DNA of 19,299 nucleotides from a virus (Duplodnaviria; Heunggongvirae; Uroviricota; Caudoviricetes). Position numbers and translations under genes: made by a program. The DNA lies in IMG/VR virus record IMGVR_UViG_2579778784_000004; one strand, 5' to 3'. A model generated the notes under the pieces. That model had not been told where the DNA came from. It saw nothing but the letters and a program-made list of their open reading frames with translations, and made no database searches. This document shows, piece by piece, positions 1 to 5,508 of this stretch; within the stretch, counting starts at the first letter, position 1, and each line of letters begins with the position of its first letter.

Positions 1-537
1 CTGGGTATAACGGCAAAACAAATTGCCGAAGCCACAGGTAAGAAAAATATGGTTTCCCACTGGTTTGGTGCCAGTCAGTGGCAGTTGCCGAATGAGGCTG
101 ACTATCGGAAGTTACAGGCACTGTTTTCCCGTATAGCGGCAGAGAAGTTTCAGGAACAACAACTGGAACAACCACACCACCAGCTGGTGGCATCTTATGA
201 TTCACTGAATCGCAAATATTCTGAATTGCTGGATGAGTTTAAATCTCTCCGGCGCTATTTCTCCGTATCAGTCTCCGTGCCTTATACCGATGTCTGGACG
301 CATAAGCCCGTTCAGTTCTACCCGGGTAAACATCCGTGCGAGAAACCGGCGGATATGCTCCGGCAAATAATCAATGCCAGTAGTCGACCTGGTGATCTGG
401 TTGCTGATTTCTTTATGGGATCCGGTTCCACAATAAAAGCAGCAATGGCGCTGGGGCGTCGGGCGTTAGGTGTTGAACTTGAGTCAGAGCGGTTTAATCA
501 GACGGTGAAAGAGGTAAGTGAACTGGTGGGGAAATAA
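1..537 (+). CDS. DNA methyltransferase (N6-adenine/N4-cytosine class), C-terminal part; 5-prime end lies outside the window
   Basis: The frame is open from nt 1 (LGITAKQIAEATGKK... precedes the first Met at 49). C-terminal region HPCEKPADMLRQIINASSRPGDLVADFFMGSGST matches the HPTQKP...DPFxGSG SAM-binding end of beta-class amino-methyltransferases. Stop at 535-537. Confidence 0.75.
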   Translation: MGITAKQIAEATGKKNMVSHWFGASQWQLPNEADYRKLQALFSRIAAEKFQEQQLEQPHHQLVASYDSLNRKYSELLDEFKSLRRYFSVSVSVPYTDVWTHKPVQFYPGKHPCEKPADMLRQIINASSRPGDLVADFFMGSGSTIKAAMALGRRALGVELESERFNQTVKEVSELVGK

Positions 538-613: not shown

Positions 614-940
614 ATGCCTCATAACCCAAATACCTGGCTGGACTTGGTCCAGAGCTGGTGGCGTGGAGACACACCGCTGGGTGCAGTGATTATGTCGATC
701 GTTATGGCTGGTTTGCGCATCGCCTATTTTGGCGGTGGTGGTGGCTGGAAGCGAAAAACGCTCGAGATTTTGCTATGTGGCGCTCTGACGCTGACCTTTG
801 CATCCGCTCTTGAGTATGTCGGATGGCCTAAATCACTTTCTGTTGCCATTGGTGGTGGGGTGGGGCTGATCGGTGTCGATGCTATTCGTGGGGCTGCAAT
901 GCGAGTAATCGGTAACAAATTTGGTGGCTCTAAGGAGTAA
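614..940 (+). CDS. Holin, class I (lambda S-like, three predicted TM segments)
   Basis: 108 aa; hydrophobic stretches (LGAVIMSIVMAGLRIAYF, LEILLCGALTLTFASAL, LSVAIGGGVGLIGV) and a charged C-terminal tail; sits immediately upstream of the endolysin. ATG at 614 follows GAGGTGAGAG. The track ORF start at 518 would run through the terminator hairpin, so it is not used. Confidence 0.7.
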   Translation: MPHNPNTWLDLVQSWWRGDTPLGAVIMSIVMAGLRIAYFGGGGGWKRKTLEILLCGALTLTFASALEYVGWPKSLSVAIGGGVGLIGVDAIRGAAMRVIGNKFGGSKE

Positions 941-943
941 TTT

Positions 944-1420
944 ATGCAGGTACTAAATTCCCAGCGTAAAGCTTTCCTTGATATGGTGGCTTGGTCAGAA
1001 GGAACGGATAACGGGCGACAACCGACACGTAATCACGGTTATGATGTTATTGTTGGCGGCGAACTGTTTACTGATTACTCTGATCACCCTCGCAAACTTG
1101 TCACGCTAAACCCCAAACTCAAATCAACAGCCGCCGGACGTTACCAGCTTCTTTCCCGTTGGTGGGATGCTTACCGTAAACAGCTTGGTTTGAAAGACTT
1201 CTCCCCCAAAAGCCAGGACGCAGTGGCATTGCAGCAGATTAAAGAGCGTAGCGCTTTACCTATGATTGATCGCGGTGATATCCGTCAGGCTATCGACCGT
1301 TGCAGCAATATCTGGGCTTCACTGCCGGGTGCTGGTTATGGCCAGTTCGAGCATAAGGCTGACAGCCTGATTGCAAAATTCAAAGAAGCAGGCGGAACGG
1401 TCAGAGAGATTGAGGTATGA
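944..1420 (+). CDS. R: Endolysin, lambda R-type lytic transglycosylase
   Basis: 158 aa; near-identical over most of its length to lambda R as I recall it ([22 protein letters not shown]..., [61 protein letters not shown]). AAGGAG Shine-Dalgarno before ATG 944. Confidence 0.95.
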
Positions 1421-1860
1421 GCAGAGTCACCGCGATTATCTCCGCTCTGGTTATCTGCATCATCGTCTGTCTGTCATGGGCTGTTAATCATTACCGTGGT
1501 AACGCCATTACCTATAAAGAACAGCGCGATAAAGCCACGTACATCATCGCTGACATGCAGAAGCGTCAACGTGATGTAGCAGAACTCGACGCCAGATACA
1601 CAAAGGAGCTTGCTGATGCTAACGCGACTATCGAAAGTCTTCGTGCTGATGTTTCTGCTGGCCGTAAGTGGCTGCGCGTCAAAGCAGTCTGTCCGGACAT
1701 GCATAAAACCACCGCCACCTCCGGCGTGGATGATGGCTCCAGCCCCAGACTTACTGACACCGCTCAACGGGATTATTTCGTTCTCAGAGAGCGCATCGAA
1801 ACCATAACTAAACAATTGAATGGCCTGCAAGAGTATGTGAGATCACAGTGTTCATATTAG
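1417..1860 (+). CDS. Rz: Rz i-spanin (inner-membrane spanin subunit)
   Basis: 147 aa; N-terminal TM segment ([16 protein letters not shown]) followed by a coiled-coil periplasmic domain; ATGA overlap with the R stop; position and length as lambda Rz. Confidence 0.9.
1610..1807 (+). CDS. Rz1: Rz1 o-spanin lipoprotein, embedded in the +1 frame of Rz
   Basis: Lipobox LAVSGC followed by the proline-rich [10 protein letters not shown]...LTPLNGIIS stretch characteristic of lambda Rz1. Lies entirely inside Rz. Start uncertain (1610, 1616 or 1649). Confidence 0.8.
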
Positions 1861-1898
1861 AAAAGTCTTATCATAAGATTTTTGTATATGGATGCATT

Positions 1899-2273
1899 AT
1901 GTCTCAATACGCTCACGCTGCTTTAATCGCTTATCATTTGGTTGCTGATAGCTCAATGCCTCCTCGTGATGCATGGGATGCAGCTGTCGCTGAGGTTACA
2001 GAAAGCGAATCGTCAAGAAAGAAGGTATGCCCAAGGGCAACATTTCTCGCCCTGGCGGATAGCGGTTACCTCAAGAATGTAAAACCACAGCATGGAGAGA
2101 AAAAGGGCGGTAAGTTGTACCAAAGGGCAATTGAAGTTGCGAATCTGATTCTTGATTTGCCCGGAATTAGCAAAGCTGAGCTAGTTGATAAAACTTGCTA
2201 TAAAGACAGGCAAGGGTCTTATGACATTGCTCTAACTCTCGCTCAGCACGGATTACTCCAGCGTCCTCAATAA
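1899..2273 (+). CDS. Hypothetical protein; candidate moron (cargo gene) between the lysis cassette and cos
   Basis: ORF of 124 aa from ATG 1899 (the track ORF starts at GTG 1848 inside the Rz 3-prime end). Visibly more AT-rich than the flanking phage genes, followed directly by an intrinsic terminator. No TM segments and no motif I can assign. Confidence 0.5.
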   Translation: MSQYAHAALIAYHLVADSSMPPRDAWDAAVAEVTESESSRKKVCPRATFLALADSGYLKNVKPQHGEKKGGKLYQRAIEVANLILDLPGISKAELVDKTCYKDRQGSYDIALTLAQHGLLQRPQ

Positions 2274-2291
2274 TATATTAAGTGATTTATG

Positions 2292-2315
2292 GCCTCGCTT
2301 TTAGCGGGGCTTTTT
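2292..2315 (+). terminator. Rho-independent terminator downstream of the moron ORF
   Basis: Stem GCCTCGC/GCGGGGC (one G-U wobble) with loop TTTTA, followed by TTTTT. Confidence 0.65.
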
Positions 2316-2720
2316 CATATCTGAATCTCACCATGCATATCATCACCTGACTGGAACGTCAGGAGAATTCGTTACCGGGATTCGATAAAGGTATTCAAGC
2401 CTGACACATTATGCGCTGTATCGTCGCCGTATTCCCGCATTAACCATGACCGTAGCCCTACGGGGAACTCCTTCTGCGCGAGTGTGCGGGAATAATCAAA
2501 AACGATACACACCGGGTTTTTACCGCGTTTATGATTCGCGGGTTTGTCCCTCATGCTCGCCAGTCCTGTGCGGGGGTGGAAGAAACAGGACACTTACACT
2601 GATTCTTGTGAGCATGATGCTATGCCTTTCTGGATTATCCCGATGCCATTCATGCAGGGTGCTGTATCAGACGCTCGTCAGAGCTGTCAGGCTGACGGGT
2701 CCTCCCGGTGGGGTGGCCTG

Positions 2721-2742
2721 CCACGGGGCGGGAGCGTCGCGG
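2721..2742. other. Candidate cos site (cosN-like; putative 12-nt cohesive-end segment GGGCGGGAGCGT at 2726-2737)
   Basis: ccACGGGGCGGGAGCGTCGCGG resembles the lambda cos junction ACG|GGGCGGCGACCT|CGCGG as I recall it, and is followed by a TGAAATTT motif. It lies about 190 nt upstream of the small terminase start, the same spacing as cosN to Nu1 in lambda. Confidence 0.55.
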
Positions 2743-2911
2743 AAAAAGGCTAGTTTTTGAAATTTCATTCGTCATCACCACTACTGTAATAGATTGATAT
2801 TACAGTGGTTTTATTTTTATGGTGTCGATTTTGATTGTTTTTTGTTCATCACTAACACCGTTTGCCTAAAGTTGTTCGCAAGATGCATGTTTAAAACATT
2901 CTGGAGCGGGT

Positions 2912-3406
2912 ATGGATCGAGAGTTGAAAAATCTGACGCTGAATATCAGTCAACTGGCGGCACTGTCAGGTGTACATCGCCAGACTGCTGCGGCAAGGCT
3001 GCAAAATCTACCCGTTGCAGGGGGGCATGAAAGCAACCTCAAGCTTTATCGGGTGGTTGATATTGTGTCGGCATTTCTGGCATTACCACCGCCGGTTGCA
3101 GAAGGCGAAATGGACGCGCATGAGCGCAAAGCCTGGTATCAGTCTGAACGTGAGCGTCTTAAGTTCGAACAGGAAACGGCACAACTCATTCCGGCCAGTG
3201 ATGTCAGACGGGAGTTTGCCATCTGGGCAAAAGCGGTCGTGCAGGTGCTGGAGACATTACCGGATATTCTTGAACGTGACTGCGGTCTGCAGCCTGCCGC
3301 TGTGAGCCGTGTTCAGTTCATTATTGATGATCTGCGCGATCAGATAGCCCTGCGGGTGACTGAAGCAGGTGCGGATGATGAGGAGGAATTACAGCAGGAG
3401 GAGTAA
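2912..3406 (+). CDS. Terminase small subunit (Nu1-like, N-terminal HTH)
   Basis: 164 aa; N-terminal HTH-like segment (LTLNISQLAALSGVHRQTAAARLQ) and an acidic C-terminus, like lambda Nu1. Directly upstream of, and TAATG-coupled to, the large terminase gene. Confidence 0.8.
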   Translation: MDRELKNLTLNISQLAALSGVHRQTAAARLQNLPVAGGHESNLKLYRVVDIVSAFLALPPPVAEGEMDAHERKAWYQSERERLKFEQETAQLIPASDVRREFAIWAKAVVQVLETLPDILERDCGLQPAAVSRVQFIIDDLRDQIALRVTEAGADDEEELQQEE

Positions 3407-5508
3407 TGCTGAATCAGGAAACCGCAAAGGCAGCACGAACCGATTCAGGTTATATCCTTCGAGCACCGAGACGAATGCGGGTTGCTGATGCCGTTGCTCA
3501 GTATATGCGGGTGCCCATGGGGGCAGGGAACTCAGTCCCGTGGGATCCGCTGGTGGCACCGTATGTTATTGAGCCGATGAACTGCCTGGCCTCGCGTGAA
3601 TACGACGCAGTGATATTTGTTGGCCCGGCACGAACCGGCAAGACTATCGGCCTGATTGACGGCTGGGTGATTTACAACGTGATTTGCGACCCTGCGGATA
3701 TGCTGATCATTCAGATGACGGAGGAAAAAGCCCGCGAACACTCCAAAAAACGACTCGCCAGAACGTTTCGCGTCAGCCCGGAAGTGGTCAGTCGCCTGAG
3801 TCCGAACAAAAATGACAACAACGTTTATGACAGAACATTCCTTGCTGGCAACTACCTGAAAATCGGCTGGCCGTCAGTCAATATCATGTCCTCATCAGAT
3901 TATAAATGCGTCGCGCTGACGGATTATGACCGTTTTCCGGAAGATATTGATGGCGAGGGGGATGCCTTCTCTCTTGCCTCAAAACGTACCACCACATTTA
4001 TGTCCAGCGGTATGACGCTGGTGGAGAGTTCCCCCGGCAGGGATGTGAAGGATGTGAAATGGCGACGGACTTCACCGCATGAGGCTCCACCAACCACGGG
4101 GATCCTGTCGCTCTATAACCGTGGTGATCGCCGTCGCTGGTACTGGCCCTGTCCACACTGTGGTGAGTATTTTCAGCCCTGCGGCGATGTGGTTGCTGGT
4201 TTCCGTGATATTGCCGATCCCGTGCTGGCAAGTGAGGCGGCTTATATTCAGTGTCCTTCCTGTTCAGGACGGATTATGCCTGAACAAAAACGTGAGCTGA
4301 ACGGACGTGGGGTCTGGTTGCGGGATGGTGAATCCATCAATGCGGATGGCAGTCGTTATGGTGATCCCCGACGCTCACGTATTGCGTCATTCTGGATGGA
4401 GGGTCCGGCAGCTGCTTACCAGACACTCTCGCAACTCGTTTACAAACTGCTTACTGCAGAACAGGAATACGAGACAACCGGAAGTGAAGAAACACTCAAG
4501 ACGGTTATCAATACCGACTGGGGATTACCTTATCTTCCCCGCGCCAGCATGGAGCAACGAAAAAGTGAACTGCTTGAGCAGCGGGCAGAGCCAGTTCCTT
4601 CCCGCAGTGTGCCGGATGGCGTTAATTTCCTTGTGGCGACAGTGGATGTGCAGGCGGGACGTCATCGCCGTTTTGTGGTTCAGGTAACGGGCTATGGCAG
4701 CCGTGGCGAACGCTGGATTATTGATCGTTACAACATCACGCAGTCATTGCGCGGTGACAGCGACGGGGAGAGCCAGCGAATTGATCCGGCCAGTTATCCG
4801 GAAGACTGGGATGTCCTGCTGACGGATGTTTTTCATAAAAGCTGGCCGCTGGCCTCCGATCCTTCTCAACAAATGCGACTGATGGCAATGGCGGTGGACT
4901 CCGGCGGTGAAGACGGGGTCACTGATAATGCCTATAAATTCTGGCGTCGTTGCCGTCGTGATGGCCTTGGTAAACGTATTTACCTGTTTAAGGGCGACAG
5001 CATCCGGCGCGCAAAACTGATCACCCGTACATTCCCTGATAACACCGGACGAACGGGCCGACGGGCGCAGGCCGCAGGTGATGTGCCGCTCTGGCTTCTT
5101 CAGACGGATGCCCTGAAAGACCGGGTGAATAACGCGTTATGGCGTGACTCGCCAGGTCCCGGCTATGTGCATTTCCCTGACTGGCTGGGGAGCTGGTTTT
5201 ACGACGAACTGACGTATGAAGAGCGGAGCAGTGACGGGAAATGGAGTAAGCCGGGGCGCGGTGCCAACGAAGCTTTTGACCTGATGGTGTATGCCGAGGC
5301 TCTGGTCATTCTGCATGGATACGAAAAGATCCGCTGGCCGGATGCACCGGAGTGGGCGAGCCGGGAAACCTGGCTGGAGTGTGTCCCGGACAGTACCGAA
5401 CCGTCACCCACACCGGAACCTGTATCCACGCCTGTTAAAAAACAAAAACGGAAGAAAACAGTAACTGACGATGTTAACCCCTGGCTGACTTCCGGAGGAT
5501 GGTTATGA
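3406..5508 (+). CDS. Terminase large subunit (GpA family)
   Basis: 700 aa; Walker A-like VGPARTGKT; CPHCGEYF zinc-binding/nuclease-region motif comparable to lambda gpA ACPHCGEE; AGGAGGAG Shine-Dalgarno. Confidence 0.93.
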   Translation: MLNQETAKAARTDSGYILRAPRRMRVADAVAQYMRVPMGAGNSVPWDPLVAPYVIEPMNCLASREYDAVIFVGPARTGKTIGLIDGWVIYNVICDPADMLIIQMTEEKAREHSKKRLARTFRVSPEVVSRLSPNKNDNNVYDRTFLAGNYLKIGWPSVNIMSSSDYKCVALTDYDRFPEDIDGEGDAFSLASKRTTTFMSSGMTLVESSPGRDVKDVKWRRTSPHEAPPTTGILSLYNRGDRRRWYWPCPHCGEYFQPCGDVVAGFRDIADPVLASEAAYIQCPSCSGRIMPEQKRELNGRGVWLRDGESINADGSRYGDPRRSRIASFWMEGPAAAYQTLSQLVYKLLTAEQEYETTGSEETLKTVINTDWGLPYLPRASMEQRKSELLEQRAEPVPSRSVPDGVNFLVATVDVQAGRHRRFVVQVTGYGSRGERWIIDRYNITQSLRGDSDGESQRIDPASYPEDWDVLLTDVFHKSWPLASDPSQQMRLMAMAVDSGGEDGVTDNAYKFWRRCRRDGLGKRIYLFKGDSIRRAKLITRTFPDNTGRTGRRAQAAGDVPLWLLQTDALKDRVNNALWRDSPGPGYVHFPDWLGSWFYDELTYEERSSDGKWSKPGRGANEAFDLMVYAEALVILHGYEKIRWPDAPEWASRETWLECVPDSTEPSPTPEPVSTPVKKQKRKKTVTDDVNPWLTSGGWL

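Follow-up and report, generated by a model that had tools for sequence, protein, structure and literature searches.

A putative moron-type DUF6979 cassette between the lysis genes and cos of a lambdoid prophage

What does a lambdoid prophage carry between its lysis genes and cos, and what could such a gene be for? The question is raised here by a small open reading frame (ORF) at positions 1899-2273 of the IMG/VR virus record IMGVR_UViG_2579778784_000004, a stretch of 19,299 nucleotides referred to below as the window. Serum-resistance genes have turned up in the lysis-to-cos slot time and again, joined recently by new anti-phage systems such as Tai/Ati. The ORF, a DUF6979 gene, forms with its flanking signals a cleanly delimited single-gene occupant of this slot in about 5% of complete Escherichia coli genomes, and also in Shigella and Salmonella prophages. 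We regard it as somewhat likelier than even that this cassette is accessory, horizontally mobile, moron-type cargo, lying outside the lysis and packaging machinery. We provide its limits, the start codon of the gene, a candidate promoter, the repeat architecture of the protein and its conserved residues. The elements of the cassette are the following:

1795..1860, plus strand: AT-rich 3' tail of Rz that travels with the cassette; other Rz alleles stop aligning here
1851..1879, plus strand: candidate weak sigma-70 promoter, with -35 TTCATA at 1851-1856, a 17-bp spacer and -10 TAAGAT at 1874-1879
1861..1898, plus strand: conserved 38-nt leader, from the Rz stop codon to the ATG, including a weak Shine-Dalgarno sequence (GGA)
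1899..2273, plus strand: DUF6979 gene (PF22399, PHROG 5039), encoding a protein of 124 residues, 13.6 kDa and isoelectric point (pI) 8.5
2291..2320, plus strand: intrinsic terminator of the cassette, with a 9-bp stem, a 3-nt loop and a T5 tail

The DUF6979 gene and its slot

The translated ORF matches the Pfam family DUF6979 (PF22399) with 100.3 bits against a cut-off of 27, residues 1-121 aligning to profile positions 1-127, and it matches PHROG 5039 from end to end (1-124 of 124, E=3.7e-72). Ratios of nonsynonymous to synonymous substitution rates (dN/dS) ranged from 0.19 to 0.40 against seven E. coli/Shigella alleles and one Salmonella allele, with dS values of up to 0.93; judged by these ratios, the gene is under purifying selection. 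We consider the ORF a real gene and, by its profile matches, a bona fide DUF6979 member. Public records (LR595868.1, OM475427.1 and RefSeq) disagree on where it starts, the annotated options being GTG 1848 (141 residues, overlapping Rz), ATG 1899 (124 residues) and ATG 1956 (106 residues). In the family alignment, all homologues begin with M-x-x-Y, and ATG 1899 is the sole start backed by that alignment.

The ORF has a GC content of 46.1%, compared to 53.6% for the window, which places it in the 3rd percentile among all 375-bp windows. At third codon positions (GC3), its value of 38.4% differs from that of holin, R and Rz together (49.0%; Fisher p=0.041) and from that of the terminase (54.2%; p=0.001). 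The AT-richness is real, yet modest relative to the immediate lysis neighbours. The AT-rich tract begins within Rz (31.7% GC at 1795-1898), and the whole module from 1795 to 2320 has 42.4% GC. Neither a transmembrane segment nor a signal peptide was found in the 124-residue protein (maximum Kyte-Doolittle mean over 19 residues, 1.05), and PHROG and Pfam searches returned only DUF6979, with no homology to a lysis family. A first-pass annotation of this DNA had described a 124-residue ORF at these positions, without transmembrane segments and AT-richer than the genes around it. The full-length PF22399 match, the hydropathy profile and the base composition all agree with that description, and two of the observations it had named as speaking against a moron, base composition and codon usage like those of the neighbours or homology to a lysis-module gene, were not made in the GC3 comparisons and the PHROG and Pfam searches. 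Its statement that no motif could be assigned was wrong, the protein being a member of a curated Pfam family.

We found the gene in 248 out of 5426 complete E. coli genomes (4.6%), in single copy and with 90-100% identity; in 40 out of 40 sampled rows from these genomes, it was annotated as an intact coding sequence. Among 50,697 phage records, nine carry it, corresponding to seven temperate lambdoids: mEp460_4F5, five lambda-like Bievrevirus-type phages and Shigella SfI. This count did not change when distant family members were used as tblastn queries, and none of the records with a DUF6979 gene was that of a virulent phage. The gene is joined to at least four packaging modules (lambda Nu1/A, DUF1441, P27+HNH and others) and is also paired with different holins and endolysins. 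In Salmonella, it adjoins a KilA-N gene, a Phage_portal_3 portal and a Mu_F-like head gene.

Other E. coli prophages contain, in their Rz-to-terminase interval, iss/bor, a Kazal inhibitor, KilA-N, ORFs of about 50 residues, or nothing; iss/bor and the Kazal-type inhibitor are antisense. The 5' part of Rz and the terminase on either side stay similar while the content of the slot varies. Two prophages (loci L004 and L005 of our comparison set) have terS/terL genes 98% identical to those of the window and lack the DUF6979 gene. Taken together, these alignments describe the slot between the lysis cassette and cos as a hypervariable cargo hotspot. In phi80, it is occupied by the defence gene Tai, which is antisense and expressed in the lysogen, and its antidote Ati, which is sense and Q-dependent (PMC11364771). 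The cassette is also found intact in a rearranged, defective prophage of E. coli C11 (L018, 1337-2022) that has a truncated recT and endolysin pseudogenes. That degraded prophages should keep the cassette hints at a benefit to the host.

Limits and expression of the cassette

Comparison of its versions delimits a mobile unit at approximately 1850-2325, consisting of a 47-bp leader, the ORF and the terminator. On the left, other E. coli Rz alleles align, with about 78-80% identity, only as far as window positions ~1791-1798, and the mosaic joint lies at about 1792-1824, inside Rz. Three independent left junctions were observed, at ~1795 in E. coli, at ~1824 in Salmonella L022, and at the end of an insertion sequence (IS) at ~1850 in Salmonella L024; the sequence from 1850 on is kept in all versions. 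In Salmonella L023, a complete Rz of another type is followed by a remnant comprising the last 33 residues of the window's Rz type, and then by the cassette. Among the E. coli genomes, the full-length Rz tail with the 38-bp spacer is present in 249, compared to 248 for the ORF, essentially the same set. Since the cassette carries the end of Rz along, it is not a clean insertion next to that gene. The element in L024 (3710-4914) is an rve-family IS inserted exactly upstream of the leader, and it leaves the promoter candidate intact. On the right, homology to SfI-type phages stops at the stop codon (2274) and homology to Salmonella just past the T-run of the terminator, while homology to prophages with other cargo restarts only at 2384-2413. 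On its left side, the cassette would spread through homologous recombination within the conserved 3' part of Rz, and on its right side through variable joints after the stop codon or the terminator.

The 38-nt leader behind the Rz stop codon has a single variable position among eight E. coli/Shigella alleles. Between E. coli and Salmonella, 31 out of its 38 positions are identical (82%), the first 16 being invariant; over the 48 nt ahead of the ATG, identity is 83%, with an invariant core of 16-22 nt. The ORF itself is 76% identical between the two, with a dS of 0.93, that is, with synonymous sites near saturation. A consensus scan located the terminator as a GC-rich stem of 9 bp (2291-2311) with TTTTT behind it. 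Its predicted RNA fold has a free energy of -17.1 kcal/mol (z=-3.7), and none of 200 shuffled sequences folded as well. In Salmonella, 28 out of 31 terminator positions are identical (90%) within otherwise unrelated flanks; the stretch from the stop codon to the terminator and the sequence beyond it are unrelated. By these alignments, leader (82%) and terminator (90%) are far better conserved than the synonymous sites of the ORF (dS 0.93).

In SfI/ECONIH1-type phages, a gene of 67 residues (phrog_12304) follows the DUF6979 stop codon and is in turn followed by a terminator whose stem, GCCTCGC/GCGGGGC, equals that of the window's terminator (L019, 2993-3246; also SfI L002, and L020). It looks as if this gene had been inserted inside the cassette. 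An imperfect palindrome, AAAAGTCTTAT-C-ATAAGATTTTT (1861-1883, plus strand), overlaps the spacer and the -10 of the promoter candidate. E. coli and Salmonella have identical left arms, but the right arm is degraded in Salmonella (ATAAAGTTTTT), which makes a conserved operator or hairpin doubtful. A universal operator upstream of family members was also considered and rejected, nothing common being found there except Shine-Dalgarno sequences, and so was an RNA element, for which Rfam returned only sub-threshold chance matches.

How the gene is transcribed bears directly on what it could do. It lies 38 bp behind Rz, co-directional with it and with no terminator in between. In lambda, Q-modified polymerase starting from pR' reads through terminators. 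A Q-antiterminated late transcript must therefore cross the DUF6979 gene, and its late expression in lytic growth is certain, on the basis of its sense orientation and lambda Q biology. Because Q-modified polymerase ignores terminators, the conserved terminator would act only on Q-independent transcripts, which is the classical argument for morons expressed from the prophage. Its conservation together with the leader argues for such a Q-independent transcript, which would also start at the Rz tail or leader and be stopped before cos and the terminase. Low-level expression of the cassette in the lysogen would be the outcome, and we regard the chances of such expression as about evenly balanced.

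The best promoter candidate for this transcript has a -35 that shares sequence with the final codons of Rz and its stop codon, and a -10 that ends 19 nt ahead of the ATG. In a position weight matrix scan, it scored 10.5 bits, the 96th percentile when the top score in each 200 bp of the window is taken, and it matches the consensus at 8 out of 12 positions. Salmonella has TTCGTA-17-TAAAGT (8.2 bits) at exactly the same position. This conservation of position is suggestive only.

The first-pass annotation had presented the locus as a moron: AT-rich, autonomously expressed accessory cargo between Rz/Rz1 and cos, closed by an intrinsic terminator at 2292-2315. The accessory character is borne out by the hypervariable slot, the 248 carrier genomes out of 5426 and the four or more packaging modules, and the terminator by its strong fold and its conservation across genera, at 2291-2320. 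The gene does lie between Rz/Rz1 and cos (the phage record ends at 2720), and the idea of a clean insertion fails at the left joint inside Rz. Atypical composition, terminator and patchy presence fit the moron architecture. For autonomous expression, the terminator part stands; the promoter search suggested for 1800-1900 gave one weak candidate, at 1851-1879 and below threshold by consensus, on which the claim of a promoter of its own depends (8/12, 10.5 bits).

The moron concept, reportedly due to Juhala and Hendrix, is that of promoter-gene-terminator units; HK97 gp15, for which PMC11364771 cites Cumby et al. 2012, is an example from HK97/HK022-type phages. The cassette resembles the HK97/HK022 morons in being a single extra gene of atypical composition with a promoter-like element, a terminator and a patchy presence, and it differs from them in that its promoter is a weak candidate, its left boundary is inside Rz and it has no sequence relation to them. 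Like lambda bor and E. coli iss, the DUF6979 gene is accessory, occupies the same hypervariable slot after Rz and is present in some lambdoids only. However, bor/iss encodes an outer-membrane lipoprotein from the opposite strand and from its own promoter, whereas the DUF6979 gene is on the late strand and its product is cytoplasmic and from an unrelated family. The phi80 genes for TaiEcA and AtiEcA share the location upstream of the packaging module (PMC11364771), but their products differ from the DUF6979 protein in size and predicted fold, and no similarity was found to TaiEcA (gp52), AtiEcA (gp51) or the products of other phi80 slot genes (blastp E>=19, negative hmmsearch scores). The closest parallels within the family are homologues in Dickeya and Brenneria prophages and in IMG/VR phages, with 30-35% identity, the same length and the motif described below. 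They too are single genes flanking the lysis cassette, in temperate phages, but they lie upstream of the holin, in the other cargo slot and in a different transcription unit.

The protein, its family and its possible role

The AlphaFold2 model of the protein has a mean per-residue confidence (pLDDT) of 90.5 and a predicted template modelling score (pTM) of 0.86, with seven helices and two short strands. When the N-terminal half of the family profile was aligned with the C-terminal half using hhalign, the probability was 88% (E=3e-6) and the score 29.3, compared to 8.3+/-1.8 (maximum 14.1) in 100 column shuffles and 8.4 in the reversed control. On this profile evidence, the protein is a tandem duplication of a unit of about 60 residues. 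Each repeat runs in the order helix, helix, turn, helix ending in G-hydrophobic-hydrophobic, and short strand, and the two strands pair. In the model, the layout of the repeat resembles a winged-helix unit. Foldseek searches of PDB and BFVD gave no match at E<=0.001, and sequence and profile searches of PDB gave none either.

The most conserved element of the family is SSRKKxCP[KR], which forms a basic turn and the start of a helix in repeat 1. Cys44 is invariant in 45 diverse members, and the window protein reads SSRKKxCPR. The latter also bears the rest of the family signature, as read from alignments of 12, 45 and 16 members: a stand-alone protein of about 125 residues, the Cys of K-K-x-C-P-[KR], an A-W motif in helix 2 and two repeats. 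The median pI of the family is 9.2, and the window protein is likewise basic and predicted to be cytoplasmic. Such a motif would be expected to vary in sequence-specific regulators, which points to a generic nucleic-acid target; the protein probably binds nucleic acids, with a generic rather than a sequence-variable target. A relationship to archaeal Ogt was rejected, with a phmmer E-value of 0.67 and Cys44 not aligned with the catalytic Cys of Ogt.

An exhaustive search with a hidden Markov model retrieved 521 family representatives at 50% identity (E<=1e-3), nearly all stand-alone proteins of 120-140 residues, and an indexed search retrieved 650 members at E<=1e-5. With more than 500 clusters at 50% identity in this family, the window protein is not an orphan. 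The members from the indexed search belong to Bacillota, Proteobacteria, Spirochaetes, Chloroflexi, Acidobacteriota, Verrucomicrobia, Bacteroidota and methanogenic archaea. Two fusions (P0098, 476 residues, and P0105, 215 residues) bear extra domains without a Pfam match. The window protein matched no NCBIfam model. Literature searches with DUF6979, PF22399, phrog_5039 or the protein accessions found no paper; two articles that were considered, one on HepS (PMC13043305) and one on co-transfer (PMC9836094), proved unrelated to DUF6979.

The gene contexts of the family were compared by clustering the neighbours within four genes on either side at 42 diverse genome loci, drawn from the family subset that shares the motif. 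The idea of a two-gene system was rejected, the largest neighbour cluster across loci (DUF4062) covering 3 out of 42; immediate neighbours at 10 further loci were mutually unrelated. The neighbours represent 121 Pfam families among 147, with no lysis family in the top 25. Defence and restriction-modification genes comprise mad2/DUF4062 (three), type I methyltransferase (two) and AbiLi/AriA (two); others are SIR2, RhuM, a type ISP restriction-modification enzyme, SLATT+TIR, HicAB and HEPN/MNT. Defence, restriction-modification and mobile neighbours recur without dominating, which is suggestive, not decisive. By these contexts, the family appears mostly cellular, solitary and scattered, which is what mobile single-gene cargo typically looks like.

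In archaeal and metagenomic contigs (L008, 2995-6378; L013, 2251-5378; L050, genes -4 to 0), the DUF6979 gene is the last gene after QueC, with a TGT-like gene and an ATPase resembling BrxC/BrxD next to it. In L014 (5001-8939), it precedes SLATT, a protein of 324 residues, Ogg-HhH, QueC and TIR; the 324-residue protein is possibly TGT-like, to judge from its DSGNYE motif. DUF6979 may therefore be linked to 7-deazaguanine DNA-modification or defence clusters, in perhaps only two independent lineages.

In viral genomes, phage homologues are always co-oriented with their upstream neighbour. A recurrent arrangement, in a different phage slot, pairs the homologue with a CHP02642 gene of about 270 residues (PF27659, with a weak match to a DnaJ-type CxxCxGxG zinc finger) directly ahead of a holin or muramidase; the DUF6979 start overlaps the CHP02642 stop codon or follows it by 1-2 nt (L010, 5190-6402; L012, 5474-6396; L078-L080, ~4136-5402). 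TIGR02642 (CHP02642) is regarded as Q-like. Elsewhere among the viral contigs, the homologue stands ahead of terS and a gpA terminase, or behind a sigma-like regulator. Co-orientation with lytic genes fits expression in the lytic cycle.

What, then, is the gene for? The explanation that we favour, with confidence just past the midpoint, joins the lines above: a leader-gene-terminator moron cassette encodes a DUF6979 protein, putatively nucleic-acid-binding, that benefits the lysogen or prophage. The small, basic, cytoplasmic protein of two winged-helix-like repeats would bind a generic nucleic-acid target and confer its benefit in conflicts with other mobile elements. A more specific proposal, rather unlikely as it stands, is that this tandem winged-helix-like family recognises through SSRKKxCP[KR] a generic feature such as modified or damaged DNA, DNA ends or structured RNA, and thereby gives the lysogen immunity or exclusion, or control thereof; it would act as a single gene on temperate phages and on defence or restriction-modification islands, and the helix-capping Cys would be essential. 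Several observations weigh against the joint explanation. Defence-gene enrichment near family members is only mild, and the window protein matched none of the families of PADLOC-DB v2 at E<=1. No upstream site on the plus strand reaches the 9/12 threshold of the consensus scan, and the weight-matrix candidate stands only at the 96th percentile. The gene is in sense to the late operon, unlike the lysogen-expressed bor/iss and tai, and in Dickeya, Brenneria and three IMG/VR phages, the homologue at the CHP02642 stop codon is co-oriented with lytic genes.

These last points lead to the main rival, a purely lytic-cycle accessory gene served by the Q-dependent late transcript only, for instance a counter-defence or self-immunity factor like phi80 AtiEcA. 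We take it seriously, as a possibility that is unlikely but substantial. It draws on the late-operon strand, the 38-bp distance from Rz and the lack of a strong promoter, on phage homologues that are always with lytic genes (after CHP02642, before holin or muramidase, before terminase), and on the phi80 precedent of a small, sense, Q-dependent gene that neutralises the phage's own defence (PMC11364771). However, it leaves the terminator, conserved across genera, without a role, since Q-modified transcription has no use for it. Moreover, the family is absent from the virulent phages among the 50,697 records and is mostly cellular and non-prophage, archaea included, which would be unusual for counter-defence, and the protein has no similarity to Ati or Tai. 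That the gene is instead a component or regulator of the lysis module, tied to this Rz/Rz1 spanin allele, is improbable. In E. coli, it is linked almost perfectly to a single Rz tail (248 versus 249); this, the constant 38-bp spacing, the same arrangement in Salmonella, and distant homologues adjoining holin, muramidase or lysozyme (Dickeya, Brenneria, IMG/VR, L014) would suggest such a role, but the linkage is explained by the leader and candidate promoter overlapping the end of Rz. Of the E. coli genomes with Rz-type lysis cassettes, more than 95% are without the gene, the protein is cytoplasmic with no transmembrane segment or signal peptide, most members have no lysis gene nearby (121 Pfam families among 147 neighbours), and in Salmonella L023 and L024 a remnant or an IS stands between the cassette and a functional Rz.

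An accessory DNA-binding factor for packaging or cos is very improbable: the possibly winged-helix-like fold and a position next to cos/terS in all enterobacterial contexts and in IMG/VR L083 would suit it, but four or more packaging modules and cos regions, unrelated to one another, are found with the gene, most phages with the same terminases lack it (L004 and L005 have an identical DUF1441 terS), and it has homologues in non-phage contexts. Finally, inconsistent start annotation (141, 124 or 106 residues) might be taken to mean that the ORF has no function and merely hitch-hikes, or that it is an artefact of annotating an AT-rich spacer. The Pfam match, the family size and dN/dS effectively refute this, given the full-length match to a family of more than 500 clusters at 50% identity, ratios of 0.19-0.40 at dS values of up to 0.93, intact annotation in all 40 sampled rows and a confident structure prediction.

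The surrounding prophage region

The window belongs to a lambdoid prophage and runs from its right arm through cos into its left arm. Over positions 1-2720, it shows 100% identity to the terminal part of Escherichia virus mEp460_4F5 (LR595868.1), and over the whole region it matches a prophage of E. coli Combat2C1, again with 100% identity. The genes and sites around the cassette are:

49-537, plus strand: C-terminal end of a DNA methyltransferase (PF01555, N6/N4 type), which continues upstream of the window
614-940: holin, lambda-type (PF05106)
944-1420: endolysin (R)
1417..1860, plus strand: Rz (i-spanin, 147 residues; PF03245 Phage_lysis, E=1e-39)
1610-1807: Rz1, embedded within Rz
2709..2732, no strand assigned: cos, approximate position; the linear record LR595868.1 stops at window position 2720
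2912-3406: small terminase (terS), DUF1441-type
3406-5508: large terminase, gpA-type

The methyltransferase gene stops 77 bp ahead of the holin start and thus sits in the second of the classical cargo positions, the one that separates Q/pR' from the lysis genes. Prophage L004 has the methyltransferase and lacks the DUF6979 gene, which indicates that the two cargo genes are unlinked.

Downstream of the cassette terminator, about 590 bp contain no convincing genes and include the end of the phage record at 2720; terS starts 191 bp beyond that end. Within this interval, 2384-2591 (both strands) is 96-98% identical in prophages that carry other cargo (L004 and L006), and parts of 1400-2950 were matched in 4715 out of 5426 E. 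coli genomes. A minus-strand ORF at 2372-2593 (73 residues) is annotated as hypothetical in some records and has no PHROG match. The first 27 residues of a plus-strand ORF at 2446-2760 match phrog_6954 (E=1e-7), whose label, 'Rz-like spanin', is probably a propagated mis-annotation of a conserved pre-cos block. At 2780-2809 (plus strand), about 60 bp past the presumed end of cos and about 100 bp ahead of terS, the scan reported a terminator-like 12-bp AT-rich inverted repeat followed by a T-run, which may be a cosB/IHF-type or regulatory element instead of a terminator.

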